Origin: Psammoneis japonica
Lineage: Eukaryota
Assembly: GCA_008632985.1 (NCBI GenBank)
Contig: QPGO01000013.1
Coordinates: 1 to 64,000 of the forward strand
DNA: 64,000 nt
Direction: 5' to 3'
The translations under genes and the position numbers were made by a program. Below, piece after piece: positions 13,727-58,762 of the stretch. How positions within the stretch are numbered: the stretch's first letter is position 1; each line of letters begins with the position of its first letter. A model generated the notes under the pieces. That model saw only the letters and a list, made by a program, of their open reading frames with translations. It made no database searches and was not told the origin of the DNA.

Positions 13727-15902
13727 AATAAGCACTGATGCAAAGAAATCTATGTTGCAGGTAAACCTAGAATGCCGCGTTGCTGAACAACATTTCCAGA
13801 AGGATTACAGGAACCCTACGTTGCACGGGCTGGGTAAAGTAGCTTTGTAGAATGGTCCTTTTTGCAGCGTGAGATACTGATGAAGGCTGAAACGTTACTG
13901 TAGGTAGTGGCTGGATCCTTTCTAGAGTATGAAGACTCTCCAAGGACGCACTTTTTCTAATCGTGTGTCTCCTTCATGGTACATCCAAAGTGGCAGTGAG
14001 ACTGGGTGTGTCGAAGGTAGAATTGCGTCACTGCAAGCGTGTGCTGGATTTGACGTTGGCAATGGAGCCGGTGCCGTCTGCCGACGATGCGACTGAAGGT
14101 TAAGGATCTGGCACTGGTGGTGGACTTGCCATTGTTGACATCTGAGTGTGCATTGTAGAGGGAGATTTTAGCACTGTCAGTCACATTGGACGTCATTCAG
14201 ACACAGCTGCAACTGGTGTAGGATTGAACAAGTCAAGTTTCTAGTTTGTTTCGTCACAGCCCCCTCTGAAGGCGGTAAAAGCATAACCACCTACGTCTCT
14301 AGTAGAAACTGAAGTGTCACAAAAGATTGTTCTCCCCTGAACAGAAAGTGTCCACTGCCGATGCCGTGCAAGCGCCCGAAAGCACTGCTTCGCAACCGTG
14401 TCCCAGCAGAAGTTGCTCCACCCCTCTTCGAGTGTGTCTTCCGATGAGATGTAATTGCATCTCTGTTCTCCCAGAATGACTTTGTCCAATGCTGCAGGCC
14501 CACTTGGGTTATCGTCACCTCATTTCACGCCCCCAATGAGCGGCCAAAAAGCGGCTCATTGCCCAATTCTTCACCCTGGTCTGCCTCGTCGTTGTTAGAA
14601 TCTCAGCCATGATCTTCGACAATGTTGTGAAAATGCCCAAGGGGAACCTGACAGCCAACTTGCAACAACCATTTCAAATGGCTTTCATGAAAGGGAGCAT
14701 CACCATCTGGCAAGGCACAAAGGAGATCCTCCATCTTGATGTTTTAGCTGGATCACAACACTTGTCGCGAATGATCTTCATTTGCTCAAAGGCATTGTGT
14801 GCTGAAAAGCAAACCTTGTTGGGTCGATTGCAAAAGCGCAACAAGAGGTGCAACAGACTGTCACCCACGACTGCAAGCATTCGACTCCACCAGGGTGGTG
14901 CTTGAGAACAGGGCAGCATCCAGCCTCTTGCATGTCAGGAGAACTGAAGAAACGGGAAGGAGGAGTGCAGAAGCGGAACGTCCAAAAACCACGGAGGCAC
15001 GTGCTGGGCTTGAGTTGGACACTGTTCAGCTGTGAGTGAGAAAGGTGCAGACACCAAAATTCTCCTTGTCTGCTTTGTCCCAAGTCCTGCATGGGTCTCT
15101 CTGAGCTTCACACTTGACTGGATCCAAAACATGAGGCCTTCTGGGGGTGCACCGCCTCGTCTCCGGGGGGAATTTGTGCCGTGACAACCTCCGCCATCAC
15201 GATCATGTTAAATGAGCACTTTGTCATCCATCTCTCATGGTGTTTTTTTAGCACACATGAACGCAAAAGACTGATGATGAGAATTGTGAATGGAAAACCA
15301 CAAAAAAGTTTGAAAACATGCTCCCTTTGATGGCTGGCCTTTGGCATGTGGCATGGGGGTTGTGATGAGGCCAAGAGGATCTTTTCTTAAGAGATTTCAA
15401 ATGCACTGCTTTGCAACATTGTTTTGCTGGAAACGAACACTTGCAGAGAGATGACCGCTTGGGGAGACCCTGGTTTTGAGTGATGTTAAAGTGACACATG
15501 CACTGGAAGCCTTGGGGTTGGAGACAAAGAGTGGCCACTTTGGCAAGCAGAGTGTGCAATGCTGCTGTGCATTGATTTTTCCAAGAAGCTCTTTTTTTCC
15601 AAAATGGCTGAGCAGCAGTCCCAGGATTCATCAAAAAGCATGACACTGTTTGGGTGTGGTTTGACAATTTTGGTGAAGCAAGCTGGAAGCTCATGATCAT
15701 TGGCATCATGGGAAGAGAACTCATTGGCATGGTTGTCAACAAGCCCAACATCTCCTTCAGAACACTGTCTTTGAGTTGCAGTTGGCATGGTTTGAACGAG
15801 TCTCAATCTTGATGCTGAAGCAGCTGCCAATGTCCCCTGCTTTGTCTGAGGTGCCGGTGCTTCCACTCAAATCTTTTTTTAATGTGCTCATCAAAACATC
15901 AG

Positions 15903-16178
15903 TGACAGGATTTGAACAGGATTTAGGTGCGCGCGAAACATCGCGCGCTGTTTAGTTTGCCGCGCACAGTTTTGTGTGCTTTAGTTCCGCGCGTTCGCGC
16001 GCGATGCAGTTTGCTTTCGAGCCACAAGGCTCACAAGAATAACAACAGTAGCCCGATCACACCGACTTGCACGTCTTTTGGCTCCTGTGACGGTCTCTGA
16101 GCGGAGACTCATCTGCCATTTAGACAGCAGTGAGGAGTCATTGTTTGAATTCTTGCCACTTGCCTTCAACTTCTGTCA
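15903..16178 (+). repeat. 5' LTR of Copia copy A
   Basis: Aligns without gaps to 22732-23007 and has 6-bp terminal inverted repeats. Confidence 0.95.
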
Positions 16179-17112
16179 GATTGACAGTCTTGCTCATTGT
16201 CAACCCATTGAGCAACCGCCATCGTCGTCGTTGATTTGCCGACGACGCTGTTTCAATTCTGCGTGGACCTCCGTGCATGTTCTACATACATCGGCAAGTC
16301 TGCGCGCGTTCAACACCAGGCATCGGCAGGAATTTAACGTCACCGTCAAGTCTCCTTGCCGCTGGACATCTGGATTGATTGCACTGCCTTTGATCGCTGA
16401 AGACACACATCAACGGTCACATCCCAAGTCCATCCTTGATCCTCATCCCTTGATGTGCCCATTCAACGGTTGACGGTCAAGAACCCCACACATTCAAGGA
16501 TCTCCGTCGCTGAAGACACACACACACACATCTTCACGGCCAAGGACTTGAACCCACTCTTTGGACTGCGGCTTTGCTGCCACTCTACAAGCACGCCGAG
16601 TCCATTGTGCCTGATCTACCCCAGACTGCTGGTGCTCCACAGTTCTGCCAGGTCCACGAGGACAACTGTGAGAGCAAGCAGCCGTGATTGCAGCCTGCGT
16701 TGGGGCGAGGGTGTTTTCCCGCGTTTGTTCGTTCGTCCACAGCGCCTGACGCCTGCGTCAACTGGCCAGCCTGATCGGGAAATCCAACCGACATAAAATG
16801 AGAACGGTTCGGGGGTCTTGTCCACCTCCAGTCAGCTTGCCCGCAGGGGTTTGCAACCCGCTGCTCCGCTCGCAAGCAACCCAAAGCGCCGCTGGCTGCG
16901 GGTTCGGACGTGCCGGCACAACTCTACGGACCGGATGGGAAGTTTAGCACCTGACAACGAACGGGACAGCACAGCCCGGCGACTTCTGATTTTAAGGCAG
17001 TTCAAGATTTCAAGTCAAGTCCATTTCAAGTCAAGTCTGTTCTCACCCAAGTTTCAAGTCTGCCTTCGCTTCCCAACAAGAATTGCTTGTCCTGACAACA
17101 CTTTTGTCTGCC

Positions 17113-20100
17113 ATGGTTCTCACTCGTCAGCAACAAACCGATGGTTTCGAGCACGTTGTTGGAACTGTGCTTGCCCAAGGTGCTGGGAGCCCTCTTCGTT
17201 TGGCTTTGACCCAAGACGGCACGGACTCGCATCAAGAACTGTTCACGTTCATGCCGTCCCAAATCGACTCGCTTGAGTGCGACAACGTCACTAACGTGAT
17301 CCCTTTGCCCCACGGTTGCAAGAACATGTTAGCAGCTCCAACCAGTCTGTGCATTGTCAAAGCACATGAAGGTCTTGACGTTGCCAATGACTCCTCGTTG
17401 TTCACGCATGACGAGTTCCTTGCCTGCTGCCTCAGCCCCGACTGCATGTCTTCTGTGTCTGTCGGCAGCTCACCCCTCGCACCTCCACATGTCACCAACC
17501 CGACCAAGGCACGTGACCCGGTGCGAGACTTCAAGCGAGGCATCAAGCGTGACCCCACCACTTTCACCGCTCTCAAATCCGACAAGCAGTGGCACACTTG
17601 GCACACCTCACTTGTGGCACAAGCTCGTGCCCAAGACGTTGAGTGCATTCTAGACTCGTCATACAAACCGACCAGCCCCGAAGACAAACCGCTCTTTGCT
17701 GAACAGCAAAAGCACATGTTCGCCGTCTTCGAACGCATTCTTCTCACCGACAAGGGCAAGGCTCTCATTCGCGAAAATGTGGGGTCTTCTGACACTCAGA
17801 CCATCTGCCGCGCCTTGTCTGAGCATGCGCTCACCTCCACCCGCGCATCTGTCGAGTCCTCCACCTTGCTCACGCACCTCACCACCGCACGGCTTGGTGA
17901 TGGCACTTGGAAAGGTCCGACCCACGGGTTCATCCTTCATTGGCAAGATCAGTTGCGCAAGTGCGAGGCACTCATCCCGGCCAGTGACCACTTCTCTGAA
18001 GGACAGAAGCACGTCATGCTCGAGAATGCCGCACACCCTGTCGAGGAACTCCGTGCTGTCAAGAACCAAGCTGATCAGCATCTTACGCAGAGTGGCAAGA
18101 GCCTCACATGCGATCAACACTGTGGCTTGCTTCTCTCCGCGGCAGCTCAATGCGACAGTGCGTTTCAACCCAAGACGACACCTCGAGCTCCCCGACGTGC
18201 CACATGCGCACACGACATCCACTCCGAGGAACCGTCCGACGATGTGTTCTGCGACATTGACAGCAACATTGACGTCCTTCAGGCCAATGCTGCCTGCACC
18301 CGTGGTCCCAGCCTCGCCGGTGACCAATGGAAACGTCTCCCTCCCGACCACCAATGGATTTGGGATTCGTTGCCCCATTCCTCCAAGGCGATCATCCTTG
18401 AGCATTCTCGTCCGCCTCCCCGCAACCCGCGAGCCAGCAACTGCCATGAGTCTGTTACAGCCAACCTTCACGTCCAACGCCTTGGGAGTGACGGTGATGT
18501 CAACTTGTCCAACACGACTCCTGCTGACTCTGGTGACCCCGCTCCAAATGTGGGTGCCACTTCGGATGATCCCATCCTGGCGCACCTCACCAAGCGCATG
18601 CCACTGCCACCTGGTGATCTGCAACGTCTGTTGTCTCCCAACCAAGCCCCCAACGCCAGTCGACCGGGGCCATCCGCCGCTCCCTCTACTCCGCCAGCTC
18701 CTGCCGGATGACATGGAACTTAACGGCCGCACTCACCGCCGCGTCAATGACCACAATGTCATTTGCTCTGCCTCTGCTCATCGCTCCACACGCACTGGTG
18801 CTCTAGTCGATCATGGGGCCAACGGCGGCATTGCTGGCGACGACGTTCGCGTCATTGCACGCACCTCTCGCCAAGTCGACGTTCAGGGCATTGACGACCA
18901 CCAATTGGTGGACATCCCCATTGTCACCGCTGGTGCCGTCATTGAGACCCAGCGTGGTCCCGTCATCGCCATCCTCCATCAGCACGCACACACGGGCAAG
19001 GGCAAGACCATTCATTCCTGCGGCCAGCTCGAATGGTGCAAACAGGATGTCAACGATCGCTCTGTCAAGGTGCCCAACGGCTTGCAATGCATTGCCACCC
19101 CTGATGGCTGTGTCATCCCCATTGACATCAAGGGTGGCCTGCCTCATGTTGCCATGCAACCTTGCACTGACGCTGAATGGGACACCCTGCCCCATGTCAT
19201 CCTCACCGGTGATGACACATGGGATCCTTCCGTCCTCGATCACTCTGTCACTGACGACGACCAGTGGTGCGACGCGATCTCTGACCTGCAGGACGATCCC
19301 ACTGCCAACCCATTTGACGAATGCGGCAACTGCCGTCATCGTGTCATTGTCAACGAGACCATCATGTCCGCTTCCTTGTCTGCCGATCACGCGTCAGCCC
19401 TCGATGATCACCTCATTCCAAACGACGACGTGTTCTACGAGAGTGTCATCTACACGCGATTGACCCCAAGGACGACAACGTCCCGCCCCCGGAGCGCACT
19501 GTGCAACCCAAGGACCCCCCCTTTGAGTCTCTTCGGCCTTGCTTTGGCTTCCCACCCACTGACACGGTCCGTCGCACTTTTGACTGCACCGCGCAGTGCG
19601 CCCGCATGCCCGCCGGTGCACACCTTGGGAAGGCCTGCAAATCACCCAACCCCGCCCTTAATGTGCACCGCCGCAATGAGCCTGTCGCCACTGACACAGT
19701 TTGTGCCGACACCCCGGCCATCGACTCTGGTTGCACCAGCGCCCAACTGTTTGTTGGCACCGAGTCTACCGTCACTGACGTCTGTGGCACCAAGACGGAC
19801 AAGGAGTTTGTCAACACACTCGAGGATCAGATCCATGAGCGTGGTGCCCCATCCAAACTCATCAGCGACCGTGCTCAAGTTGAGATCAGCAACAAGGTGC
19901 TCGGGATCCTACGAGCCCTCTTCATCTCCAGCTGGCAAAGTGAGCCTCACCAGCAACACCAAAACTTTGCCGAGCGTCGACACCAGACCGTGAAGCGCAT
20001 GGCGAACACTGTCATGGATCGTTTTGGTTCGCCCGCCCACACATGGCTGCTGGCGCTCATGCATGTGTGCTTCGTGCTCAACCACACAGCATCCCCACGT

Positions 20101-22784
20101 CTCCACTGGCGCACGCCCCTCGAGACTCTCACTGGCTCCACCCCGGACATCAGCCCATTGCTTCGCTTTCACTGGTGGGAACCCGTGTGCTTCCACCTCG
20201 ATGACTCCGATTGGCCGTCCGAATCCCGTGAGTTGCGTGGACGCTTTGTTGGCATTGCTGAGCATGTCGGCCACCAGATGACCTTCAAGATTCTCTCTGA
20301 CGAGACTCAGAAGATCCTCTGCCGGTCCAACGTACGCTCCGCTGCCACCGATCCTGCCGTTCGAAACCTGCGTCTTGATCCTCCTGATGGGGAGCCACCT
20401 GAACCCATCATCAAATCTCGCCATGACGACAACCCCGTCGATTCTCCTGATGGGGAGATCAGGACACCCAAGATGCCAGTTTTCGATCCGCAAGACATCA
20501 TCGGACGCACCTTCCTCATGCAGCCACAAGAGGACGGACAACGCCACAGAGCTCGCATCGTCAATGCCGTCGAAGACCACGAATGGAAAGTGAACGGCAA
20601 TCCCGAGCTCACTAAGTTCATCTGCTCTGTCAACAACGACGAATGCAAGGAAGTCCTTGCCTGCAACAACATCATGAATCACATTGAGCAAGAAGACGAA
20701 GACACTGCTGTTTGGAAATTTCGACGCATCGTGTCACACGAAGGACCTCTGAAGCCTCATGACCCAACCTGGAAAGGCTCAAGCTACAACATCATGCTTG
20801 AATGGGAAAGTGGGGAGATCACGTCCAAGCCTCTTGCCATCATCGCCAAGGACGACCCCGTCACCTGCGCCATCCATGCACGAGAGAACGGACTTCTCGA
20901 CACTGATGGCTGGAAGCGGTTCCGCACCATCGCGAGGCGCCAAAAGAAGCTATTTCGCATGGCCAACCAAGCCAAGCTTCGCTCCTTCCACACTGCACCT
21001 CGCTGCAAGTGCGGATGCGAAGTTCCCGGAACTGCAAACACGCCATGTCACTAGATGAACGCAACGGCAACCGCAAATGGGGAGACGCAACTAACCTCGA
21101 GATGGACCAACTCGAGGAATACGAAGTCTTCCATGACAGCGGGCCCTTCGAGTCTTCCACTCCTCCTGCGGGACACAAGAAGATCCAAGTGCACCCAGTG
21201 TGCGACGTGAAACACGACGGTCGCCACAAGGCACGACTCGTAGCCGATGGGCACCTCACGGACGCACCTGTCGACAGTGTCCACTCCGGAGCAGTCTCCC
21301 TCCGTGGCCTTCGGCTGATGATTTTCCTGGCCGAACTCAACGAGTTAGAGACATGGGCCACCGACATTGGCAATGCCTGCCTTGAAGCCACCACCAAGGA
21401 GAAGCTCTACATTGTAGCCAGACCCGAATTTGGCAAACTCGAAGGACACATCCTTGTCATCCACAAGGCCCTGTATGGACTGCGCAGCTCTGGTCTCCGC
21501 TGGCACGAGCGCTTCGCCGACTGCCTGCGAGCTGAAGGATTCTTCCCCTGCCGCGCCGAACCCGACATTTGGATGCGCAGGAACGGCGACCACTGTGAAC
21601 ACATTGCCATTCATGTGGATGACCTCGCCATTGCTGTGAAGGACCCTCAATCTTTTGTCGATGCTCTCACGGAAAAGTGCAAGTTCAAGCTCAAGGGTGC
21701 GGGACCCATTGAGTTCCATCTGGGTTGCGACTTTTCCCGGGATCCCGACGGAACCTTGTGCCTGTCTCCGCGCAAGTACATCGAGCGCATGGTTGACAGC
21801 TGCGCCCGACTGTTTGGGGAGAAACCTGCCACCAACGCCCTGTCACCTCTGGAGAAGGGTGACCACCCCGAACTGGACACTTCCGAACTGCTGGGGCCCG
21901 ATGGCATTCACAAGTTCCAGTCTCTTGTTGGTTCACTCCAGTGGGCAGTGTCCCTTGGTCGAATTGACATCACCACGGCCGTCATGTCACTCTCTAGCTT
22001 CCGAGCTGCACCCCGTCAAGGCCACTTGGACCGTGCCAAACGCGTCTGTGGTTGCCTCTCCAAGATGCAACACGGCGCTCTCCGCGTTCGTACGGAAGAG
22101 CCCGACCATTCGGATCTCCCTGCTCCGGCCCATGAATGGATGCATTCCATGTGTGGCGAAGCAGAAGAGATGATCCCGAAGGATGCTCCACCGCCCCTTG
22201 GCAAGTTCGTCACTGCCACCCACTGCGTCGATGCAAACTTGCACCATTGCATGCTCACCGGACGCTCTGTCATGGGAATGCTCCATTTCCTCAACAAATT
22301 CCCGGCTGATTGGTTCTCCAAGAAGCAAGCCACCGTGGAGACTGCGACCTGCGGGTCTGAATTTGTTGCCGCAAGGACTTGTGTTGAGCAGATTATCGAC
22401 CTGCGCATCACCCTGCGCCACCTTGGCGTCCCGATCTGTAATGTCAGTTGCATGTTCGGTGACAACAAGTCAGTTGTAGACAGTGCCACCATCCCGCACT
22501 CCAAGTTGCACAAGCGACACACCGCACTGTCGTTCCACCGTGTGCGTGAGGCAATTGCCTCTGGTTGCCTTGAGCTCCACTTCATCGAAGGCTCCCGCAA
22601 CCCTGCTGACATTCTCAGCAAGCATTGGGGTTGCTCCCAAATCTGGGACCTTCTCCGCCCCCTCATGTTCTGGAACTTCATTCCATCCGAAGTCGAATCT
22701 GTTTCTGTGACTCCTCAAGCAAACTGGGGAGTGACAGGATTTGAGCAGGATCCAGGTGCGCGCGAAACATCGTGTGCTGTTTAG
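17113..22784 (+). pseudogene. gag-pol polyprotein of Copia copy A (frameshifted, Tyr-depleted)
   Basis: Gag RDFKRGIKRD; protease LVDHGANGG; integrase VATDT...ISDRAQVE...NFAERR; RT DVKHDGRHKARLVA, DIGNACLEA, KALYGLRSSG, HVDD; RNase H GDNKSV...NPADILSK. Frame breaks near 18700, 19400-19500 and 21030. Confidence 0.93.
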
Positions 22785-23007
22785 TTTGCCGCGCACAGTT
22801 TTGTGTGCTTTAGTTCCGCGCGTTCGCGCGCGATGCAGTTTGCTTTCGAGCCACAAGGCTCACAAGAATGATGACAGCAGCCCGATTGTGCCGACTTGCA
22901 CGTCTTTCGGCTCCTGCAACGGTCTCTGAGCGGAGACTCATCTGCCATTTAGACAGCAGCAAGGAGTTGTTGTTTGAATTCTTGCCATTTGCCTTCAATT
23001 TCTGTCA
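22732..23007 (+). repeat. 3' LTR of Copia copy A
   Basis: Direct repeat of 15903-16178, followed by the TSD ATCAG. Confidence 0.95.
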
Positions 23008-23514
23008 ATCAGAATTTGAGAGATCAAAACTTGGATGATCATCAGTGCAAACTGGAAACATTGTTGAGCCACTGCAAAATGCACATCCATCATGGCAGGT
23101 GAGCTGCTTGAGCCCAACGTTGATGAGAGCACTCCTTGAGAACACAAACTTGAGGTGGATCCAGCATCCTTGTCATCACACATGTTTTTTGACATCTCCA
23201 GGCAGCACTTGTGGTGGCCCAACATTGGGAAAGTCAACGCCCTTTGGCAGCTCCACAAAAACAGGCCTTGACATGTTGGCACATGGGTGTGCACACTCCA
23301 GCCAAGCAAAATCAACTTGCCTTGATCTTCACTTTTAAAAAAGATGGACAGAACAAGGAACAAGTGAGAGTGGCAGTCAACAAGAAAGCAAAAGCATGGG
23401 CTTTGTTGTGGTGGTCACCTTTCTTTGTCTTGTGTTTGCCCAAGCCAAGTTGGCTTTTTCCATTTGTGCACTTGGCTGCTGCAAGAATGCATTGACTGTG
23501 CTTGTTCACAAGGG

Positions 23515-23690
23515 CCCCATGCTGCACAGGCAAAAGAATGGTCTCACCCTTCTTGGGCACATCAGCACTTGCAACAACACACCAATGTTTCCCATCAGCA
23601 TGGTCTCACACTTTTTTGGCCACAGCTTTCAGAGAGCTTCATGCATGCACAGCATGTCTGGGTCATTCTTGGATGCCTTCAGGTCACTCA
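23515..23690. repeat. Dispersed repeat segment; second copy at about 40757-40920
   Basis: CCATGCTGCACAGGCAAAA..TGGTCTCACCCTTCTTGGGCACATCAGCA...CAGCTTTCAGAGAGCTTCATGCATGCAC is present at both loci in the same orientation. Confidence 0.8.
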
Positions 23691-28225: not shown

Positions 28226-28499
28226 AATTTCTCTAAAGTGAAAAACCTGACTCCATTTGCTTCCAATCAACATGCCAAAGAAAAAAGCAATGAACTCCAA
28301 TGCCAGCAATGGCCAGCGCACATACCACAGGGATTGACCCTCAAACCTTTACACTCAAGCCTCTGCCACCATATTCCAAAACTTGAAGATAGCTGTGTAG
28401 AGCCGATGAAATTCTGCACGAAAGTCAAAAAAACTACCATACAAAATGCCCGTAGAATCAGTGTTATCACCGTCCGACGTGAAGACTATTTTTTTAAAT

Positions 28500-30219: not shown

Positions 30220-30249
30220 CGTCCACTGATGGTATATTAGTAACCCGCA

Positions 30250-41900: not shown

Positions 41901-42214
41901 TGCAAGCACAGGCTCCATGTGCAACTTTGGCACACAGAGAGTTTTTTCAGATGTGATGGACTTTTGCGAATGGGTGGACAAAGAATGCAAAATGTTTGTA
42001 GAGAGCAGGGTGTTTCAAAACAAAGTAATTTCTGTCATTGGCCATGTGCAGTGTTGGGAAGTGCAGTTGTCAGTGCAAGCATCAAATCAGCTGGCAACAA
42101 AAAATTGCTGTCTCAGGGATCATTGCAGATGCAGCCATGGAAGCAGGTTGCAGCAGCATGTGTGTTGATCCAGAGAGACAGCTTTGTTGCCTTGGCAGTC
42201 TCTGTGATTGTTCA

Positions 42215-48400: not shown

Positions 48401-51400
48401 GGATGCCGTGTGGTTGAGCACAAAACACACGCAGATCAGGGCGAGCAGCCAGGTGCAAGCTGGGGACCCGAAGCAATCCATGATGGTGTTGGCCATGGTC
48501 TTCACAGTTTGGCAGCGGCGTTCAGCAAAATTCTGATGCTGGTGGTGAGGCTCACTTTGCCAGCTAGAGATGAAGAGGGCACGAAGGATGCCAAGAACCT
48601 TGTTGCTGATCTCAACCTGAGCACGGTCGCTGATGAGCTTGGACGGGGCACCGCGATTACGAATGCTGTCTTCAAGGGTGTTGACAAATTCTTTGTCAGT
48701 GTTGGTGCCACACACGTCAGTGACAAGAGATTCCATGCCGACAAAGAGCTGGGCGCTGGTGCAGCCAGAGTCAATGGCAGGGGCGTCGGAGCAGACCGTG
48801 TCGGTGGCAATGGGTTCATTGCGTCAGTGGACATTGAGAGCCGGGTTGGGTGATTTGTGTGCCTTTTTCAGGTGCGTGCTGGCTGGCATGCGGGCACACT
48901 GCGTCGTGCAATCAAAAGTGTGGTGGACAGTGTCCTTTGGGAGAAAACCAAAGTGGGGGCGGAGGGACTCAAAGTCGGGATCCTTGGGATTGAGTTTGCG
49001 CTCATGGCATTCACAGAAGAAATGAGATGTCGGGAGCAGGTGATCATCAAGGACAGAGTCTGTAAGCAAGGCGTTGTTGACGACATGGCGGTGACGACAG
49101 TTGCCGAACTCATCGATGAGGTTCGCAGTCGGGTCGTCTTGCAGGTCAGACACGGCATCATGCCATGTCTCCTCGTCCGTGAACTGGTGGTCAAGGACAG
49201 ATGGATCCCATGTGTCATCACCAGTGAGAATGACATGCGGCAGAGTGTCCCATTTGGTGTCAGTGTGCAGGTGCATGGCGATGTGCGGGAGGCCGGCTTT
49301 GGCATCAATGGGAATGATGCATCCATCAATGGTGGTGAGGCGCTGCAGACCATTGGGGACCTTGATGGACCGATTGTTGACATCGTGTTTGCACCACTCG
49401 AGTTGGCCACAAGAGTGCATTGTCTTCCCCTTTCCAGTGTGGGTGTGCTGGTGAAGGATGGCAATGGCAGGGCCGCGTTGCATGTGGATGACACTGCCGG
49501 CAGTGACAATGGGGATGTCGACCAGTTGATGATCGTTGATGCCTTGGACGTCAACCTGGTGACCAGTGCGGGCAATGACACAAACATCATCACCGGCAAC
49601 ACCGCCGTTTGCACCACGATCCACGAGAGCGCCTTTGCGAGTTGACTTGTGGGTCGAGGCAGAGTGGATGACATTGTGGTTGTTGACGCGACGGCATTTG
49701 TGGCCGTTGATCTCAATGTCAGTGTCATTGGGCTTCACGTTGGAATGGACGAAAGGTGCAGAGCCGGGTGGTTTCTCGCCAGAATGGGCGGAAGGAGGCT
49801 GTTCAGGTGCCAGGAGATGTTGCAAGTCGCCGGGTGGCAGAGGCTTGTGCCTGGTGAGATGAGCCAGAATGGGGTTAGCATCGGCTGCATTGGCTGCAGC
49901 GTCGGATTGTGCCAAGGCTGACGCAAGATTGTGAGTGTTGGCGGACAAGTTGACATCGCCATCACTGCCAATGTGGAGGTCATGCAGGTTGACCACCATC
50001 AAGTCATGGCAGTTGCCCGTGTGGGCGGTGCGCGAGCCAAGAATGATGGCCTTGGTGGGCTGGGGCAAGGTGTCCCAAATGCGCTGGTGGTCCGGCGGAA
50101 TGTGACGCCATTGTTCCCTGGTGAGGGAGTTGCCACGGGTCTGTGCAGCACAAGCTTGTGTGACGTCAACATCACTGTCGATGTCGAAGAATGCATCATC
50201 ATCAGGGTCGTCAGGAACCAGGTCATGTTCGTAGATGGCACGGCGCAGAGCGTGAGGAGCCGTCTTGGGGGCGAACGTGCTGTCGCACTGTGCTGCAGCA
50301 GAAAGCAGGAGTCCACAGTGCTCTTCGTAAGAGAGTCCCTTTCCATTCTGCGTGCGAAACTGATCGGCCTGATTCTTCACCGAATGGAGTTCCTCGATGG
50401 GATGTGCGGCGTTCTCAAGCATGACACGTTTCTGGCCAGCAGAAAAATGGTCCGCACCCGGGATGAGAGCTTCATGCTTGTGGAGCTGGTCCTGCCAGTG
50501 GAGCACAAAGGCATGAGTGAGCCCTTTCCAGGTGCCATCACTGAGGCAAGCAGTGGCGAGGTACGTGAGAAGGGTCGAGGACTCCAGGGATGTGCGAGTG
50601 GAAGTGAGGGCATGCTTGGAAAGGTCACGACACACCGCTTGAGCATCAGAGGAGCTGACGTGTTGACGAACAAGAGCCTTGCCTTTGTCATTCTGCAAGA
50701 TCCATTCAAATGCGGCGAACATGCACTTCTGTTGTTCAGCAAACAAGGCCTTGTCCTCAGCTGTGGAGGGCTTGTACATCGGGTCAAGAATGCGTGTGAC
50801 ATCTTGGGAGCGGGCCTGTGCAATGATGGAGGTGTGCCACATGTGCCACTGTTTGTCAGACTTGAGAAGCGCGAAGGTGAGTGGGTCACGTTTGATGCCT
50901 TGTTTAAAGTCACGCACGGGATCATGTGGTTTGGGTGGCAACGAGCCAGGAGTGGGAGCAGATGGTGCTGCACCCATGGAGAGGGACGCCACACACTCAG
51001 GACTAAGACGACAGTTGGTGAACTCCTCTTGTGTGAACAATTGAGGGTCATTGCTGACATCCGCGCCGCCATGCGCTTTTGCCGTGTGCAGGCTAATCAA
51101 TGCAGCTGTCTGTGCTTTGTAACCACGTGGCAAAGGCATTTGATTGGTTCCGTCATTGCACACAAGGGCATCCAATTGCAACGGAGCAAAAGTGAAAAGG
51201 TCCTGATGCAAATCGGTTCCATCAATGTTGAGAGTGGAGCGCAATGGACTGTCTGCGGCTTGATTCAGAACAGTGCCTAGAATGTGCTCGAGGCCATCGA
51301 TTTGTTGTTGCCTGGTGAGAACCATTTTGGAACTGGGTGGATGTCGGAACTGGCCAGAGTCGGGGGGTGAGCTTGAAATGACTTGAAACTTGACTTGAAT

Positions 51401-52385
51401 CTTGGCTTGATGTCTTGGACTATCTTGAGAGTCAGAAGCCGCTGGGCTGTGACATCCTGTTCGTAGTCAAGTGCTGAGCTTCCCATCCGGTCCGTAGAGT
51501 TGTGCCGGCACGTCCGAACCCGCAGCTGGCGACGCTTTGGGTTGCTTGAGAGTGGAGCAACGGGTTAAAAACCCCTGCTGACAAGCTGGCTGGAGGTGGA
51601 CAAGACCTCCAAACCGTTCTTGTTTTATGTCGGTTGGATGACCCGATCAGGCCAGCCAAATTTGGTGCTGTGGAGGGACAAACAAATGTGGGAAATGCAC
51701 CCTCGCCCCAATGCAGGCTGTGACCATGAATTGCTTCCTCTCACAGTTGTCCTCGTGGACCCCTGCAGGACTGTAGAAGACCAGCAATCCAGCGCAGATA
51801 CGAGGCGGTAGACTTGGTGTGCGTGGAGCAGAGCCAGAGTCAGGGATTTGTGTCGTGTGCGCGTGAACGCGTGCGGATGTGTTGGCAGGATCCGCTGTGA
51901 GGAATCCGGAATCTCGGATGTCTGAGAATTCAGGAATTCCTGGCCAAACAAATGTCCGTTGAACAAACACATCCAACGATGGGAGGCATCGGATAAATCC
52001 AAACATGCAGATTTAATCCAGCATCCAGCAGTGAAGAAGGTAGATGTGCACTTCCACCGCCAACGGTGCGCGTCATCGAAAATTTCTCGATGATGATGAT
52101 GAATGCTCAACGGACAATGAAGAGCAAGACTGTCAATCTGACAGAAAATGAAGATGACTGGGTGGAAGAAAACAATGGCTCCTCACTGCTGTCTAAACAG
52201 CAGATGAGTCTCCATGCAGAGACCGTCACAGGAGCCGAAAGACTGGTGCCATGATGTCGGTGCTGCTGTCATCATTCTTGTGAGCCGTGTGGCTCGAAAG
52301 CAAACTGCATCACGCGACGTGCGTGGAACTAAAAGAGCACACACAATTGTGTGTGACAAACTAAAATCTTGTTCAAATCCTGTCA
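45497..52385 (-). mobile_element. Full-length Ty1/Copia (CoDi-like) LTR retrotransposon, copy B (related subfamily of copy A)
   Basis: 247-bp LTRs at 45497-45743 and 52139-52385 with TGACAG...CTGTCA ends. TSD ATTTA (45492-45496) / ATTTG (52386-52390). Same PPT and post-LTR sequence (GATTGACAGTCTTGCTC) as copy A. Confidence 0.95.
45731..51325 (-). pseudogene. gag-pol polyprotein of Copia copy B (frameshifted, Tyr-depleted)
   Basis: Start MVLTRQQQ as in copy A; LVDRGANGG; ISDRAQVE; DVKHDGRHKARLVA; KALCGLRSSG; HVDD; NPADILSK; ends GSDRI*. Confidence 0.93.
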
Positions 52386-55300
52386 ATTTGCAATTTGATT
52401 GACAAGGCCCCACATGTTCCAAGGTGAGGATGAGATCCCTTTCAAGCATTTGGGCCCATGTTCTGATGCTGCATGTCCATCAGCATGACAACTCAACATT
52501 GATTGCATGACACAGCTGCCTTGACTGCGCTCTCATCTCACATGGCTGGTTGCACCCTGCTGTGGATGAATCGGACTCTGATCTTCTTTGTGTCACCCTG
52601 TCACCTTTGGACTCCATTTCTTGTCTCTGTTCTGACGTGGGTTTGTTGGAAGGTGCTCCTGAGCATGCAGAACTGGCTGAACTTCAAGGTTTTGGGTGTC
52701 GCAAGAACCTCCTCAGTGAATTGTTGCATGCATGCATTGTTTGCCGCCTTGACATTGGGTGTGCCATTGGGGCACTCTCTGAGTTCACATCTCGTCTGGC
52801 CCTGGCACATTGCAATGCTTTGAAAGGTGTTGCAAAATGTCTTCATTGCACAAAGCATTGGGGCATCAACTGCAAGAAGCCTGTGAAGTTTCCTGCCCCA
52901 CCATTGTGTCCTTTTGAGCACTTTGAGCCAGACACCTCCTTGCTTCACTTCCCTGCCCCAGACTCACCCACCCAACTGCAAGCTTTCCCAGATGCTTCAC
53001 ACAAAAACAACCTGCAGAGTTGCCAATCCATGACAGGGCATGCCTGCATGTTGGCTGGTGATGCCATCTTACACCGCTGCAAGCACAGATGGTGACGGCT
53101 CTGCCAGCTCTGTCGAGGCCAAATTTCATGCTGCCAGCACTGCCGACAAACAGGTTCTTTGTCTCTGACCTGTTCTCTGGGGGGGACTTGATTTCCCCCA
53201 GCATGGCCCCACTCCTTTGCATGTTGACAACAAGTCTGCCATCAAGATCATCAACAACCACATTCTGACTGAGCACTCCCGACACATTGACACTCAATTG
53301 TTTGTCCTTCAAGATTGGAAGGAGGGTGGTCATGTTGTTTGTCAACCCCCAAGCAATGACCTCACCAAGACTCTTGGTTCAACACTGCATGCCCACCATG
53401 CCCGTCAGATGGTGGGACACTCTCATTGAGTCCTGCTGCTGCATGTCTCTGGGCATCTGCAGAGTTGTGCTTTTTGTGTTTTGTTTGCCCTGTCTGACTC
53501 TTTCATGACAGTCATCACATCTGCATGTGTCATCTTTGGTTGTGATTGTTGCCTTCCCTTTCTGTTCTGTCTGTGATCTGCATTGTCCTCATTGGACATG
53601 TTGGATCAGGGGAGGGTGTCAGCTGACCCTGTGCATGGTCAGACTGCTTGTGGATGATTGTCACACATTTTCAGACAGTCAAGATGGATGATCTCTCTGA
53701 GATCTTCTCTCACTCTTTCTCACTGGCACACATGTCATCCACTGTCACCAGTTTGCAGGGAGCTCTTCAGCTCATTGCTTTTGCCCTTTGGTGCTCTGAG
53801 ACAGTTGTGCTGTGTGTGACAATTGCAGACATGCACCCACGTTGACCCTGGGTGGAGTTTGTGGTTGAATTCAGGGCATTGTTTTCACCAGCTGTTTTTG
53901 CAATTTTCTGTGTGAGCTGCATGCAGCAACTGTGCAGGACATTGACAACAAGGGATCAACAAGGGGCTGCATCTAAAAAATGATGCAGACCACACACACC
54001 TTTGATCTGAGGCTGATTGCAAAACAAGAGCAGAGGGAGGAAATGGCAGGAAAGTTTGTCAAGGTTCCAAAGTCAAAACAAAAGTCAAAACAAGATGAGC
54101 TGGTGGAAGGGGGGGGTGACTGCTGCGGCTGCCCCACAGACTCATTCCAGAGCTTGTGCTTGGCTGCAACCTCAAGAAGCACAACATGTGCAGCACACTT
54201 TCTCAAAAAGAAAGAAAAATGACAATGTCCAGAATTGCTGCACCCTGCTCCTCCATTTGCAAGCACCCTCTGTCAAACACATCCAAGCAGGCCAAGGAAG
54301 GCAACCCCAAAAGAACCACAGCAGCAATTGACAAGAAAAAGCAAGAAAACACAGATGATGCAACACCACTTGTGAGTGGATGCCAGGGTTTTTGTGAGCA
54401 AGCTCAAGCAGCCTTTTTTGACCATGAGAGCACAGCAAGCAGCCCATGGGGGAAATCCAGTTGGCGTGTTTCCCAAGGGACTCATGCAGCAGTTGACTGA
54501 ATTTTGCATGGCGGAGAAGCTGGCTGCTGGTGTTTCAACAACTCTGCTGCTTTCTTTGAGGCAATGGGCAATGTTTTGCACTGATGAGGCAGACCATTGC
54601 TGGGATGTCAGTGAATTCTGGGAGCTCCAGCATGGCGCTTTGGAGCTGTTGTGGTCTGCAATCATGGAACAACAACTGTGGTCACACTGTCCAAATCCAT
54701 TTGCTGTCCATTGCTGTCTGGCAGCTGTGTCAAAATTGGGGCCAGGGGAGCTGCACTGCATCTTTACCAAGACCCACACTTCCAGCACACTGGGCTGTGT
54801 GGCAGAAGAGACAAAGGATCTGACAGAAGCACCTGGAGATGGAGTGAGAGCTGCAAAGTGCAGAGTGCTTTACTTGCTTGAGACTGCCCTTGAGCACAGG
54901 TTTGGCCAATGCAAAATCCAGCTTGAAAGCTCAGATACAGAGTCTTCCAAGTGCACACCAACAAAACCCACTGACACATCATGGCACCTTGCCAGATGCT
55001 CTTGCCTCTTGTTGCAAACAGCGCCACAAGCTCCACCTGCAACTGATGCCATTGTGCCGGCTGCTGGTGGGACTCAGCATCATGCATGACCATGAACCAA
55101 TTTGTTGTGTGCCTCCCACAGGTCCTGGCAATGCTTCCAAATGAAGGAGCCAATCTGAAATGACCAGCTCAGAAATGAGCAAGTCAAGGTGCTTTGCAGT
55201 GTGGTGGTCCAAGAACCTGGTTGTGATTTGGTGTGAACTGAGGAGCTTTTTTCTTTTTTAACAAGCACTTGCAGCTCCCTTGTTGCACAGCAGATCACAT

Positions 55301-57233
55301 TTAGAGCACAGAAAAATGACAGAAAGACTGTGCACACTCTCTGCAAAACAGCCACAGCCACAGGCGCAGCTTGCTGCACTGTGTGGGGCGCTGTGGCAAG
55401 TGCTGGGGCTTTTGTGTTCTTGGAAATGTCTTGTGCGCCAACATTTGTTGCAGAGGGAGTGAGATCTGACTGCTGTTGTCCTTGATGGAGACACAATTGT
55501 TGGCAAAGTTAGAAGCTCACCAGTGCCAATGTGATCCAGCTCTTGGCAGGATCTCACACTGCTGCACTGCGACACTTGTGTGAGTTTTTTGGATCGAGGC
55601 CGCAGCGTGCACGCGCACTTCTGCATGTGATCTTCTGTGAAATTGTCCCACACTCCCTGTTTTGCAACGCCAAAGGCTTTCCATTTTCTCTGTTTGTGAG
55701 AACAGAAATGGGGTGAGTGTTCTTCAATGTTTGAAGAATGCACATTTGGGCAAATCACAAATGATGTGCTTCAAGTGTGGAGAGGAGGAGAGACGTGCTT
55801 GCAAAATTGCCTCTTTTTCCATTGGCAATCATTTTGTGTGTTTTTCATTGCTGAACAATTTTGTTGCAGAGCTTGTGCACAGAATTCTGCAAGCTCAATG
55901 TCACACAGCCCCGCCTGGAAGGCAGGGTTGGAATGTGCATCCGCTCCTGATGCAAGCAGCAGTGCTTGTGCACACAACCATCGACGGCTTTGGTGTGTGT
56001 GGCTGTCCACTGGCAGCAAAAGGACCTGCAGAATCAGCAGCAAATGCTGTTGCAGGTGCAAGCATGCCATCAATGACAGCCCAGACAGCCACCACTCATG
56101 TGCCCCGAGCAGCAAGGCTCGCAAGTGTGCTGGAGCCTGCAGCAGCTGGGTCTTGAAGCAAGCTGCAGAGCACAAGCTGTTGTGCTGACCTTGTCAGGCA
56201 GCACACATCTTGTTGGCTCTGAGAGAAGATTGATGGCATGACTGAGAATGCTTCATTGCAGAGGAAGCGTGCGAGTTAGCAGTTTGATCAGAACCAGACA
56301 AGACAACTCGTTCTGAACAAACATGGGCAATTTTTTCACATTCGTGGCCGGTTTAAAGGAAAAGGGAAAAAAGGAGGGGATTCCGACAGTTGAACACACA
56401 CACAATTTGACCATGCAACCAGGGCCAGAGTTGCACTGGCTTCTTTTGGTCCAGGGTGGTTGCTGCAGGTGCAAAGAGTGGGGCACATTGCAGCTGCAGG
56501 AGGGCAACAATGTGACTCTGAGTGTGTGCTGCCAAGCTGAGAAGCCCAGCTTGGTTGTGAGCCAAGCCCTGCCAGGCCTGCTGCCCTGGCTCCACAGCTG
56601 CTCCTCCCAGTGTGTGCATCAATTGTTGAAGGAGCACCACATTGACTCAAAGGCTGTGTTTTGGGTGGAACAGAGAGGGAAAGAATTGTTGTCCTCTTGA
56701 CTGGTGCTTGCTTCAGACCCCGCATCATGAGCACAAGCTCCTCTTGAGAAATGAGCGAGAGACACTTCACACAGTCATTTTTGGTGCCTCTCTTTGGCTG
56801 CCCACTTGGCATTGCCAACAAACTCTTGAACCCAACCTCACTTACAATTTCTTCACCCTTCAACCACAAAAGCAGGCTCAACTTTTTGTTGGCTTTTTTG
56901 TGGCCAGGGATCACTGTTGCAGGCACAAATGGTGGGCACATGCCATGTGGCTCTGCTTGGCAACAATGTGATGCCAAGCAAGCATGTGCCACCCACCAAG
57001 GAGTCAAGCAGCCCAGCTCAGCTTTGAATGGAGCTCCAGGACAGCAGCCAGCTCTTGGTGCTCCCAGCATGGCTTGCTTGCTCAAGCTGTGCTGCATTCA
57101 CCCCACAATGCTCTGTGTTGTGGTGGCTTGTTGCAAGCCATGAGGAGTCTGCAGTTGGCCAGGGGCCCATTTTGCAAAGGCCACACATGTTGTGTGAGGG
57201 GCCAGGTGCAGAGATCTGCAACAATGGCTTTGT

Positions 57234-57530
57234 GGCTGTTGGCGCCAAGTTGGCATTTGATTGGGAGCCAGTGCTGAGGGGCTGTGAAGTGGCTGTGCTG
57301 GGGTCAGGAGCCCAGCCAGCTCACACTCTCTCTTGTTGTCACAAATTGCTGTCACAGCTGTCTTTGCATTGCAACCAGCCAGGTGCAGTTGGTCCCAAGC
57401 TGGCACTTGATTTGGAGTGGCTGCCAAGGAACTGTGAAGTGTGGGGTTGGGCAGTCCAGCCAGCTCACACTCTTTGCTGACAGCAGAAAGTGCTGTCGCA
57501 CCTGTCTTTGCATTGTGGTGCCAGCCAGGC
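57234..57530. repeat. Degenerate tandem repeat, about 150-bp unit x2
   Basis: GTTGG..CCAAG.TGGCA.TTGATT.GGAG...CTGTGAAGTG...CCAGCCAGCTCACACTCT...CTGTCTTTGCATTG...CCAGCCAGG occurs twice. Confidence 0.7.
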
Positions 57531-58762
57531 ACACATGGCCAGAGCAGCCTTGGCACATCCTGCTGACAAAACTGGCAAAACAGCAACTCTTGTGGTTGGG
57601 CCAGCATGCAGGCAGTCTGGGCACACCCCTGGGAAGTCAAACAGGAAGGAGGGCTCAGCATTGCCGCCAGTGCCAGAAACATGCTCAGCAGCTTGTGTCT
57701 TGAGAGAGATTCGAGCCCACACAGCCCCGAGCTGGGTGTCTTGGCTGGCAGGTTGGAAAGCATTCTTGAGCACAGTCTGGTGTGTGGGTGGCACTGTCGC
57801 CAAGAGAGCTGCTCTGCAGAGGAAGAGGGAAACAGGCAACAGCATTTTGCAAGAACTGTTTTTTTTTCAATGGTTGGGTGGGATGGGGCAGCATCTGGAC
57901 TTTGACGGAGCATTTGGCGGACAAAGCTTGAGCACAGAGAGCTGTCCACTCAAGCTCCACAAGTGGCACATTCCAAAGGTGACACCACACATGGGCCATT
58001 TGTTCATGCATCAACATGCATCAAGCTGCAAGTCTCACAAAAAACCACCACCAACCTTTCAACCAACCACCATGGAGGAGAGAACAGGGCAAGAGGTTCG
58101 AAACAAGAGTGATTCATTGACTCTCTTCTTGTTTCATGCATTCAAGAGCTTCTTGTCCTTCTTGAACATTTGTTGTGCATTGTTGTCTCTTTTAATTCAA
58201 GTGCAAAGAGGAATCACTTTTCTTGTTTCTTTCTCTTGAGGGGTTGTTGGTTGTTGAGTGATGCAATTTTTGTTGTCACATTTTTGGAAATGTTGGCAAA
58301 CCCGATCACTGGCTTGATTGTCAACCCATTCACCATTTTGAGTCTCCATGGCATAAAATGCCACAAGCCCAGAGCCCTCAATTGTTTCATCAAACGCAGT
58401 GCTTTGCACACGTCCAACATCAACTCGACTCAGTTGAAATCCCAATTTGTGGGCGATGAAAAATCACGAATGTCAAACAAATGGCTGCTTTCGACACCAA
58501 CATCCCCGAGTTCAATCCAAATGTGACGGCATGCCTTGCAGCTTGTGACCATGACACATGCAAGCATGCTTCATTGTTGTCATCGCGCACTCGCATTGAA
58601 AATGCCGATAGATCAAAGTTTACGAAAAGGATGGAATACAAATTCATTTGTGCATTCATTGGTGGCATTGGAATAATGACATTAAGGGCAGAAGGGAAAT
58701 CCTTGTTCATCATTGACATTTCTGTGTTGCTCAGAATTTGAAATCTGACCACTGCCGTTAAG

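Follow-up and report, generated by a model that had tools for sequence, protein, structure and literature searches.

Throughout the repeats of the 64-kb window considered here (the whole stretch of DNA that was analysed), the dinucleotide TA is almost missing, whereas the intervening genes have it in normal numbers. The question raised by this locus is whether the deficit was a property of the elements from the start, was produced by mutation after they inserted, or exists in the sequence data and not in the DNA. A preliminary description had favoured mutation, proposing that A:T pairs at TpA were converted to G:C in repeated or heterochromatic DNA.

TpA depletion in the repeats and its authenticity

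The window as a whole contains 964 TA, an observed/expected ratio (O/E) of 0.25, with TG at 1.55, CA at 1.49 and CG at 0.62. Pooled counts bear out the contrast first noticed by eye: TA has an O/E of 0.09 in 43.6 kb of repeats (227 TA in 43,598 bp; CG 0.47, TG 1.70, CA 1.67, GC content 0.511) versus 0.57 in 19.8 kb of genic DNA (724 TA in 19,798 bp; CG 0.98, TG 1.21, CA 1.11, GC content 0.494). Base composition would predict 2,611 TA in the repeats, and the genic ratio 1,488. The ratios for AA, AT and TT are equal in repeats and genic DNA (AA 1.17 vs 1.11; AT 0.90 vs 0.93; TT 1.18 vs 1.18), and the gain of TG and CA in the repeats is symmetric (4,584 TG, 4,580 CA). At 1-kb resolution, TA O/E lies between 0.00 and 0.28 at 1–1000, 14001–28000, 30001–59000 and 61001–62000, and between 0.40 and 0.80 in genic intervals. 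When the two cut-offs used for Bigelowiella natans (TpA depletion and CpA/TpG enrichment; Mettrop et al., bioRxiv 10.64898/2026.01.13.699255) were applied, 34 of the 64 1-kb intervals passed both, the longest unbroken run comprising 13 intervals.

The transitions between TA-poor and genic DNA are sharp, falling within ~100–300 bp, and the borders measured at 100-bp resolution (~814, 14.5–14.75 kb, 28.0–28.3 kb, 30.3–30.5 kb, 58.6 kb and 60.93–62.07 kb) coincide with the repeat coordinates given in the preliminary description. The depletion extends over the Copia, Gypsy and TIR elements and the unclassified repeats but leaves SPT6, the P5A-ATPase, HisD and two further genes unaffected (Table 1).

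Table 1. TA-depleted features and control genes, with their positions in the window.
Feature	Positions	Strand	Details
TA-depleted repeat fragment at window edge	1–814	.	1 TA per 810 bp
Control genes SPT6 and P5A-type ATPase	1660–11641 (SPT6 1660–7282; ATPase 7518–11641)	+ (SPT6); - (ATPase)	TA O/E 0.4–0.8
TA-depleted, CpG-poor unclassified DNA adjoining Copia A	14550–15900	.	
Copia A, LTR retrotransposon	15901–23007	+	LTRs 15901–16178 and 22730–23007; RVT_2
TA-depleted repeats including Gypsy-type fragment	23008–28000	.	
Gypsy-type fragment	26605–27878	-	Integrase_H2C2 and RT_RNaseH hits; 0 Tyr in 400 aa
Control gene between both repeat blocks	28300–30300	-	Normal TA, 4–6 per 100 bp; covered by RNA-like X2 contig
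TA-depleted repeat block	30350–45496	.	Contains TIR element and Copia RT fragment
TIR element	32028–33980		51-nt terminal inverted repeats; 1.95 kb; TA O/E 0.12
Copia RT fragment	38181–39263	+	
Copia B	45497–52402	-	LTRs 45497–45760 and 52139–52402; RVT_2
TA-depleted unclassified repeats	52403–58609	.	13 TA per 6.2 kb; one 1,350-bp TA-free stretch; sharp 58.6-kb border
Isolated 1.1-kb TA-depleted island between two genes	60931–62072	.	3 TA
Control: histidinol dehydrogenase exon	62725–63684	+	Normal TA; nearest named relatives are diatoms

Because TA-free DNA is without TAA and TAG stops, long false ORFs arise on both strands; the window holds 46 ORFs of at least 200 aa. Homology searches fail on such DNA: of 128 repeat ORFs of at least 110 aa, 123 lacked a Pfam hit, and the remaining 5 (E ≤ 0.01) all matched LTR-element domains. 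Of the affected classes listed earlier, Copia (RVT_2), Gypsy (a fragment) and TIR elements are confirmed and non-LTR elements are not, the Pfam matches of these ORFs including neither a non-LTR nor a transposase domain.

A region-specific effect of this kind is also what would be expected if a modified heterochromatin base were miscalled, the true DNA retaining TA. However, Logan contigs of sequencing run X1 reproduce the TA-poor stretches: contigs including one of 6,371 bp match 10001–15929 with 5 differences, others match six stretches within 22982–27374 with 0–2 differences each, and X1 contigs do show TA where they cover genes or further Copia copies. The platform of X1 is not on record; the run behaves as accurate reads and is possibly the data from which the assembly was built or polished. 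X1 excludes long-read basecalling error, although it is not an independent sample, and the check for an artefact thus mostly favours real sequence. Furthermore, the same loss of TA and Tyr occurs in independent public metagenome contigs (L033, L030 and L014) and in 4 of 150 database homologues, the random choice of TG or CA at the same site in both LTRs of an insertion fits mutation, and a base read as G or C by every polymerase would turn into a true mutation once the DNA was replicated. Basecalling is an unlikely source of the pattern, and we regard a sequencing or assembly artefact of any kind as highly improbable.

A further run, X2, labelled 'DNA?', behaves like RNA, with a spliced joint at 12520/12608 (CT..AC ends) and contigs over genes only. 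Its cover over 14.7–28 kb is zero, a blank that does not count as evidence of silence.

Direction, timing and level of the changes

The two Copia elements allow the direction of change to be read. Copia A contains 50 TA, at the upper end of the 40–50 estimated by eye, and has lost ~90% of its TA while largely retaining CpG (O/E about 0.85); Copia B contains 43 TA. The LTR pair of each element is 92% identical, and the two elements are 74.5% identical to one another. Tyrosine makes up 0.6% of the Copia A RT ORF (20907–22784) and 0.2% of that of Copia B (45882–47489), within a range of 0–0.6% for repeat ORFs, whereas 150 homologues have a median of 3.8%. Among 15 RT columns with Tyr in at least 60% of 32 homologues, copy A has Tyr at 3, Cys at 5, His at 4, Phe at 2 and Ile at 1 (Cys/His at 9/15), and copy B has no Tyr, with Cys at 8, His at 3, Phe at 2, Leu at 1 and Thr at 1 (Cys/His at 11/15); the codons are TGY/CAY. 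The remaining conserved RT columns are retained at 188/213 (A) and 177/209 (B). For the change of Tyr to Cys/His, Fisher tests give p = 2e-8 and 9e-12.

The RT regions of ten related Copia elements from metagenomes, ordinary in their TA content, have 63–131 TA per ~1.6 kb, versus 14 and 7 here, and TA O/E is at least 0.5 in 46 of 49 related loci. Where one Copia element has TA, the other has CA (30), TG (21), TA (20) or any remaining dinucleotide (17). In X1 contigs from other copies of Copia A, 16 places among the 40 listed of 423 differing places have T/A where the window has C/G; 10 of these yield TA in the other copies and 3 more are halves of CA/TG swaps, against a chance share at such sites of ~31% (p = 5e-5, among the same 40 of 423 places).

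These comparisons bear on whether the elements simply never had TA, owing to codon use or horizontal origin, or lost it to GC-biased gene conversion. The mild TA deficit of the host genes is in keeping with such an origin, but relatives have normal TA and Tyr, conserved Tyr columns are now Cys or His, and the depleted elements belong to unrelated classes. AA, AT and TT are undepleted and, therefore, there is no general drive from AT to GC. Intrinsic composition or selection thus scarcely merits consideration as the cause. A second candidate signature, an excess of C over T on the sense strand in the comparison of Copia A and B, was dropped, given that the nearest normal relative (L001) is equally C-rich at third codon positions.

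The LTR pairs date the changes, as an element inserts with two identical LTRs. Of the 22 sites that differ in pair A, 18 are in YR dinucleotides, including 6 CA/TG swaps, 3 cases of TA versus TG/CA and 3 of CG/TG, and CpG is retained (21/20); in pair B the figure is 13 of 21. Since the LTRs of each Copia element diverge mostly through CA/TG swaps and through TA versus TG/CA, the changes at TA post-date integration. As a rough estimate inferred from pair A, each LTR lost ~75% of its TA, 7% of its CpG and 1% of its other sites.

Editing of retrotransposon transcripts from A to I by an ADAR- or ADAT-like enzyme, fixed through reverse transcription, would act earlier. It would suit the majority of affected elements here, which are retrotransposons, and ADAR and ADAT prefer a U 5' of the A that they edit, according to the accessible text of Mettrop et al. 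(bioRxiv 10.64898/2026.01.13.699255). However, the edits are not shared by both LTRs of an insertion, placing the changes after integration; TG and CA are equally numerous, in place of sense-strand TG alone; and depletion is just as strong in unclassified DNA and in the TIR element, the latter indicating that TA loss does not depend on reverse transcription. Editing at the RNA level is accordingly very hard to sustain.

The direction is TA to TG or CA, after insertion, at the DNA level and confined to mobile DNA. The conversion of A:T to G:C at TpA proposed in the preliminary description is therefore supported by the LTR pairs, by the change of Tyr to Cys/His, by TA in other copies of the family and by related Copia elements elsewhere with normal TA.

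Chemistry, targeting and a probable defence function

CpG decay runs alongside the loss of TA, as seen in the pooled CG ratio of the repeats and in the CG versus TG/CA differences between LTRs, and CpG O/E falls to 0.07–0.2 at 38–45 kb. By estimate, ~42 of the 110 CA/TG swaps between Copia A and B are accounted for by CpG decay. It also supplies part of the overall CA/TG excess.

This CpG depletion of the affected DNA would fit methylation and the frequent repair of T:G pairs, and hence error-prone repair synthesis in methylated heterochromatin (e.g., after deamination of 5-methylcytosine), during which a translesion polymerase would misinsert G opposite T at TA, like polymerase eta at WA in antibody hypermutation; the WA signature of polymerase eta is A:T to G:C. 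That signature should also deplete AA and TT, which are as frequent in the repeats as in the genes. Copia A keeps CpG while losing TA and, therefore, the loss of TA does not follow CpG damage. Moreover, the hypermutations of B. natans are all at TpA in the portion of the preprint available (bioRxiv 10.64898/2026.01.13.699255). We consider repair synthesis a very improbable source of the changes.

The base attacked could also be thymine: the T of TpA within silenced DNA might mispair with G once it has been modified (e.g., hydroxymethylated by a TET/JBP-type enzyme), or might be enzymatically aminated to 5-methylcytosine, either route giving CpA, with TpG opposite. TA being palindromic, the equal rise of TG and CA hides which base is hit, and the 5-hydroxymethyluracil (5hmU) of dinoflagellates prefers TpA; on the other hand, 5hmU:A pairs are generally weakly mutagenic. 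Amination of U to C is carried out by DYW:KP domains in plant organelle RNA, as described in the accessible part of PMC11845758, but the literature searched reports no such activity on DNA and no thymine modification for diatoms. An attack on thymine is unlikely, although it is the least improbable of these alternatives.

Adenine deamination in silenced DNA, producing hypoxanthine at TpA that is read as G, is the chemistry that we tentatively favour, at a little under an even chance; the enzyme would most likely be a nucleic-acid adenine deaminase. The TA that persists in the repeats occurs in uneven contexts, with TTAA 4.0-fold and CTAA 2.6-fold over-represented and ATAT at 0 (42 on the expected scale). 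An additive model fits these contexts, which tentatively suggest that the target A is preferred with a 3' neighbour in the order T>C>G>A. This order disagrees with ADAT tRNA substrates and with ADAR preferences. At 49 sites, the product formed (TG or CA) is in no clear agreement with the flanking-base preference from the residual contexts.

As for targeting, the proposed aim at repeated or heterochromatic DNA stands in part: mobile DNA is hit and genes are spared, but dependence on repetition as such (RIP-like homology sensing) gains no support; 14.67–15.34 kb is TA-poor though its X1 word depth equals that of single-copy flank. Word depth is 55.6 in the flanks versus a summed 28,000–143,000 over Copia A, which indicates many related copies and is no copy number. 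Many other copies of Copia A keep TA at sites mutated here and, therefore, the process is not immediate for every repeated copy. We infer that what directs the enzyme would be the state of the elements (silent chromatin, methylation or small RNAs) and not their sequence. Attractive candidate enzymes, given in the accessible part of Iyer et al. (2011), are the Rossmann-fused deaminases and the deaminase-SAM-Tudor proteins specific to stramenopiles, whose reader domains could provide such targeting.

We propose that mobile elements insert and would then be mutated from A:T to G:C solely where T precedes A, each TpA becoming TpG or CpA according to the strand hit, with both strands hit about equally. 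The process would halt ~100–300 bp from the borders between elements and genes and would be superimposed on ordinary CpG decay. Tyrosine codons, TAA and TAG stops and TA-rich signals would all be lost and, therefore, the element would be killed while its GC content goes up, not down. The same signature has arisen de novo in B. natans mutation-accumulation (MA) lines and is therefore read as the same kind of targeted defence. It is likely that this post-insertion, DNA-level and near-saturating TpA hypermutation is the long-term footprint of a genome defence of the B. natans kind, now in a stramenopile. The broader proposition, that diatoms, and perhaps SAR more widely, possess a dedicated enzymatic defence, a natural DNA adenine (or thymine) editor that turns A:T into G:C at TpA in double-stranded DNA, directed against silent or foreign elements as a functional mirror of repeat-induced point mutation (RIP) and saturated here on every mobile-element class, we judge as probable as its opposite.

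If true, targeted TpA hypermutation would not be unique to one chlorarachniophyte but would be a defence strategy common to two or more SAR lineages, and its strength here would have sufficed to remove ~9/10 of TpA sites across every mobile-element class. Diatoms are transformable and editable, and pennates can be crossed; therefore, the enzyme and its targeting signal should be findable by experiment. For base editing, a natural enzyme that writes A:T to G:C in chromosomal DNA would be of interest. Unless the TpA process is modelled, estimates of repeat content and of the ages of elements would be wrong.

Comparison with known systems

Decay of CpG through deamination of 5-methylcytosine likewise yields TpG/CpA and is present here, but it cannot remove TpA. 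Retroelement editing by ADAR/ADAT and APOBEC3 is likewise a deaminase-based attack on selfish nucleic acids, and ADAR/ADAT favour U before the target A; however, these enzymes act on RNA or single-stranded cDNA, before integration and on one strand, whereas here the changes are post-integration, neither strand is spared and a DNA transposon is among the targets. The signature of pre-integration editing, one strand with identical edits in both LTRs, is absent: TG and CA are balanced, the LTRs differ and the TIR element is hit.

Fungal RIP resembles the present case in several respects: it is a targeted hypermutation by transitions, specific to a dinucleotide, it inactivates mobile elements through changes in their DNA, and its borders with genes are sharp. 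RIP changes C:G to T:A, mostly CpA to TpA, making TA and AT-rich DNA, and here the change is the opposite: a test for the direction of RIP fails, with repeat GC content above the genic value and TA depleted. RIP also has its own requirements, namely duplication, a sexual cycle and RID-type cytosine methyltransferases (RID/DIM-2).

The closest match is B. natans, which supersedes the earlier remark that no described pathway was known. It was the only account of this signature in the literature searched, and none was found for diatoms (most subscription journals lay outside the search). In the accessible text of the preprint (Mettrop et al., bioRxiv 10.64898/2026.01.13.699255), A>G or T>C changes, all at TpA, make up 230 of the 231 mutations that newly arose in two integrated viral regions, at a rate raised ~1000-fold in living lines and episodically, and RT and DDE domains are over-represented in TpA-depleted clusters and CDS. 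The window shares with that case the restriction of A>G/T>C to TpA, giving TpG/CpA, the clustered 1-kb TpA depletion coupled with CpA and TpG enrichment, and the targeting of foreign or mobile DNA with host genes spared. The differences, as far as that text goes, lie in the host (a rhizarian versus a diatom-like stramenopile, probably a pennate diatom), in the target (integrated giant-virus and virophage DNA far from saturation, with an NCLDV Rho_TpA of 0.45, versus LTR and TIR elements near saturation at 0.09), in the evidence (mutations seen live in MA lines versus a footprint alone) and in the CpG decay that accompanies TpA loss here. The precedent is recent, a 2026 preprint, and the present case is the same signature in a diatom-like genome with LTR and TIR targets.

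Extent and composition of the TpA deficit

The window contains 964 TA dinucleotides, corresponding to an observed/expected ratio (O/E) of 0.25, with TG at 1.55, CA at 1.49 and CG at 0.62. TA O/E is 0.00–0.28 in the 1-kb windows of 1-1000, 14001-28000, 30001-59000 and 61001-62000, and 0.40–0.80 in all other 1-kb windows. The pooled repeat blocks (43,598 bp; GC 0.511) have 227 TA (O/E 0.09), where 2,611 would be expected from base composition and 1,488 from the genic ratio; the pooled genic DNA (19,798 bp; GC 0.494) has 724 (O/E 0.57). TG and CA number 4,584 (1.70) and 4,580 (1.67) in the repeats vs 1,464 (1.21) and 1,398 (1.11) in genic DNA, and CG O/E is 0.47 vs 0.98; AA, AT and TT show no difference between the two pooled sets within the window. 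Because TG and CA rise equally across the whole repeat set, both strands are hit. These counts bear out the preliminary description, in which TA was near-absent from repeats and normal in genes, and its repeat coordinates match the depletion borders mapped at 100-bp resolution (~814, 14.5-14.75 kb, 28.0-28.3 kb, 30.3-30.5 kb, 58.6 kb and 60.93-62.07 kb).

Genes, mobile elements and other features of the window
Feature	Position	Strand	Remarks
SPT6	1.66-7.28 kb	+	Host gene
P5A-type ATPase	7.5-11.6 kb	-	Host gene
Intron	12520-12608	-	CT..AC ends (GT..AG on minus strand)
Copia A	15901-23007		Full element, orientation opposite to Copia B; LTRs 92% identical
Tandem duplication, 217 bp	25377-25794		Within TA-poor block
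Gypsy-type fragment	26.6-27.9 kb	-	
Expressed-looking gene	28.5-30.3 kb		
TIR element, 1.95 kb	32028-33980		51-nt terminal inverted repeats
Copia reverse transcriptase (RT) fragment	38.2-39.3 kb		
Copia B	45497-52402		Full element, orientation opposite to Copia A; LTRs 92% identical
Tandem repeat, 54 bp (2.5 copies)	58759-58895		TA normal; directly outside the 58.6-kb border
Expressed-looking gene	59.4-60.8 kb		
Histidinol dehydrogenase (HisD) exon	62.7-63.7 kb	+	Host gene

The HisD exon has 77% identity to a cluster with Fragilariopsis kerguelensis transcripts among its members and 73% to a Nitzschia protein, and of the named Copia proteins the closest comes from Fistulifera solaris. Judged by these matches, the host would most likely be a raphid pennate diatom. 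Copia A and Copia B, both LTR retrotransposons, are 74.5% identical to each other. In a Pfam search of the 128 repeat ORFs of at least 110 aa, 123 had no match, leaving much of the repeat DNA unrecognisable to Pfam; a non-LTR element, previously listed among the affected classes, was not confirmed in this search. Stop-to-stop ORFs of at least 200 aa number 46 in the window, and many of them overlap on opposite strands within the repeats (14600-58600). Two of three stop codons (TAA and TAG) require TA, and its depletion therefore leaves many reading frames open; gene finders would predict false genes there.

Authenticity of the TA-poor sequence

The stretch is present in four public sequencing runs of one sample (X1 to X4), and X1 was compared as k-mer contigs over 10001-30000, at a word depth (k-mer cover) of 55.6. 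A single X1 contig of 6,371 bp spans 10001-15929 with 5 differences, reaching from the ATPase gene far into the TA-poor DNA, and six other contigs match portions of 22982-27374 with 0-2 differences each. The possibility that long-read basecalling produced the deficit, against which the preliminary description had called for a check with other reads, is unlikely, because noisy long reads do not give contigs so long and accurate; the TA-poor sequence is in all likelihood real, although X1, of unrecorded platform, may be the assembly's own data and does not count as an independent sample. TA depletion was also found in 3 of 49 related Copia loci of public metagenome contigs (L033, 0.13; L030, 0.27; L014, 0.31), with tyrosine at 0.6% in L033 and 0.9% in L030 and retained at 3.1% in L014, and four of 150 homologue cluster representatives (P0190, P0197, P0253 and P0259) combine <1% tyrosine with raised cysteine and histidine. 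These loci and proteins lend independent support to the TA-poor DNA as real, and the TpA-loss process seems to be active in other organisms too.

X2, labelled 'DNA?', behaves like an RNA run: its contigs lie on genes only, and one skips 87 nt at the intron. At 10047 and 10059 in the P5A-ATPase gene, near a contig end, X1 contigs have TA for the window's TG and CA for its TA, and X2 carries both forms at half depth each; these differences may be allelic variation.

Direction, timing and rate of TpA loss

Both LTRs of an insertion derive from one template, so differences between them arose after integration. Of the 22 sites that differ within the LTR pair of Copia A (278 nt), 18 fall in pyrimidine-purine steps, including six CA/TG swaps, three sites with TA vs TG or CA, and three CG/TG; the two LTRs retain nearly all CpG (21 and 20) and have 6 and 3 TA. 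With CpG so well kept, the CA/TG swaps must come from TA that turned into TG or CA separately in the two LTRs. In the Copia B pair (264 nt), 13 of 21 differing sites fall in the same classes, and several others are located where the repeat end is ragged. RNA editing ahead of integration is contradicted by these differences between LTRs of one insertion, by the strand symmetry, and by depletion of the TIR element (TA O/E 0.12), which also indicates that reverse transcription is not required.

The coding sequence carries the same imprint. At 15 RT columns with tyrosine in at least 60% of 32 homologues, Copia A has Y 3, C 5, H 4, F 2 and I 1, and Copia B has Y 0, C 8, H 3, F 2, L 1 and T 1, with the cysteine and histidine codons being TGY and CAY. 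Other conserved columns are retained at 188 of 213 in Copia A and 177 of 209 in Copia B (Fisher p 2e-8 and 9e-12, respectively, for tyrosine vs other columns). Tyrosine makes up 0-0.6% of repeat ORFs vs a median of 3.8% across 150 homologues, and is absent from the 400 residues of two Gypsy ORFs. An intrinsically TA-poor composition of the elements would account for low TA; however, in ten related RT regions whose TA content is ordinary, TA numbers 63-131 per ~1.6 kb vs 14 and 7 here, and therefore the Copia lineage is not TA-poor by nature.

Other copies of Copia A show the same direction of change. Among 40 listed places of 423, at least 16 show C or G in the window where X1 contigs read T or A; at 10 of the 16, other copies have TA, often as the majority of depth (61,824 of 69,822 at 16238), and another three each form one half of a CA/TG swap (by chance, ~31% would fall at TA or swap sites; p = 5e-5). 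At least seven further listed places, with CG in other copies and TG or CA in the window, represent ordinary CpG decay. Copies of Copia A are very numerous, and most of them retain TA at several sites mutated in the window copy; as many copies elsewhere still carry TA, the process acts neither at once nor on every copy. Summed X1 word depth over 15300-23300 is 28,000-143,000 vs 55.6 in the flanks, and two very small runs (X3 and X4) assemble the Copia A element alone.

For Copia A, ~18 ancestral TA were inferred in the LTR, with ~75% lost per LTR, vs losses of ~7% at CpG and ~1% at other sites; on a log scale, this one LTR pair suggests that TpA in this element mutated at roughly 20x the CpG rate and 100x the rate of other sites. 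The younger Copias have likewise lost more of their TA than of their CpG (TA O/E 0.08-0.2; CpG 0.7-0.9), and in the oldest blocks (38-45 kb and 53-58 kb; CpG O/E 0.07-0.15) hardly any of either dinucleotide is left. Across blocks, CpG decay varies widely and TA-poverty is equal. The word depth of a TA- and CpG-poor segment at 14.67-15.34 kb is that of single-copy DNA; the segment may be an ancient remnant that its own mutations have rendered unique, or may reflect spread into flanking DNA. A TA-specific error-prone repair polymerase would also remove TA, but this explanation is weakened by the unchanged AA and TT and by the faster disappearance of TA than of CpG.

Where Copia A and Copia B are aligned, TA in one corresponds in the other to CA 30 times, TG 21, TA 20 and anything else 17. 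Relative to genic contexts, residual TA is enriched in TTAA (4.0x) and CTAA/TTAG (2.6x) and depleted in ATAT (0), ATAC (0.19) and ATAG (0.22). An additive model fits the ten TA context classes with the 3' neighbour of the target A ranked T>C>G>A, a preference held as tentative because a direct product-choice test on 49 sites did not clearly agree with it.

Proposed mechanism and precedent

The data demonstrate a TpA-restricted transition process that acts on DNA, after insertion, on two strands and confined to mobile DNA. The original interpretation of TpA to TpG/CpA change directed at repeated or heterochromatic DNA, with genes spared, holds. We infer that the process would be enzymatic and that silencing of the elements would guide the enzyme to them; repetition, foreignness or chromatin may be the trigger. 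Adenine at TpA may be deaminated to hypoxanthine; this chemistry is tentatively favoured, though at somewhat under even probability, because the hallmark of ADAT/TadA and ADAR enzymes is a target A preceded by U or T. Attack on the thymine, via modification or amination, appears improbable. Stramenopile-specific deaminase-SAM-Tudor proteins and Rossmann-fused deaminases, described without assigned roles (Iyer et al., 2011; PMC3239186), are candidate enzymes for adenine deamination.

The preliminary description knew of no such pathway, but the TpA signature has been reported for the chlorarachniophyte Bigelowiella natans in a 2026 preprint (Mettrop et al., bioRxiv 10.64898/2026.01.13.699255). 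In mutation-accumulation lines of B. natans sequenced by Illumina, two integrated viral regions mutate ~1000x faster than the remaining genome, with 230 of 231 changes being A>G or T>C; every one of these hits TpA, and only some lines show them; TpA-depleted, CpA- and TpG-enriched clusters are enriched in RT and DDE domains, and an ADAT2-type adenine deaminase is proposed (Mettrop et al., bioRxiv 10.64898/2026.01.13.699255). Diatoms and stramenopiles are not mentioned in that preprint, and our literature search, in which subscription journals were thinly covered, found nothing on diatoms for the TpA signature. By the preprint's cut-offs for TpA depletion and CpA/TpG enrichment, 34 of the 64 1-kb windows here pass both. 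The TpA-targeted hypermutation in P. japonica is a diatom case, at saturation, of a kind described only in that one preprint, and shares with B. natans both the restriction of A>G/T>C changes to TpA and the TpA-depleted clusters.
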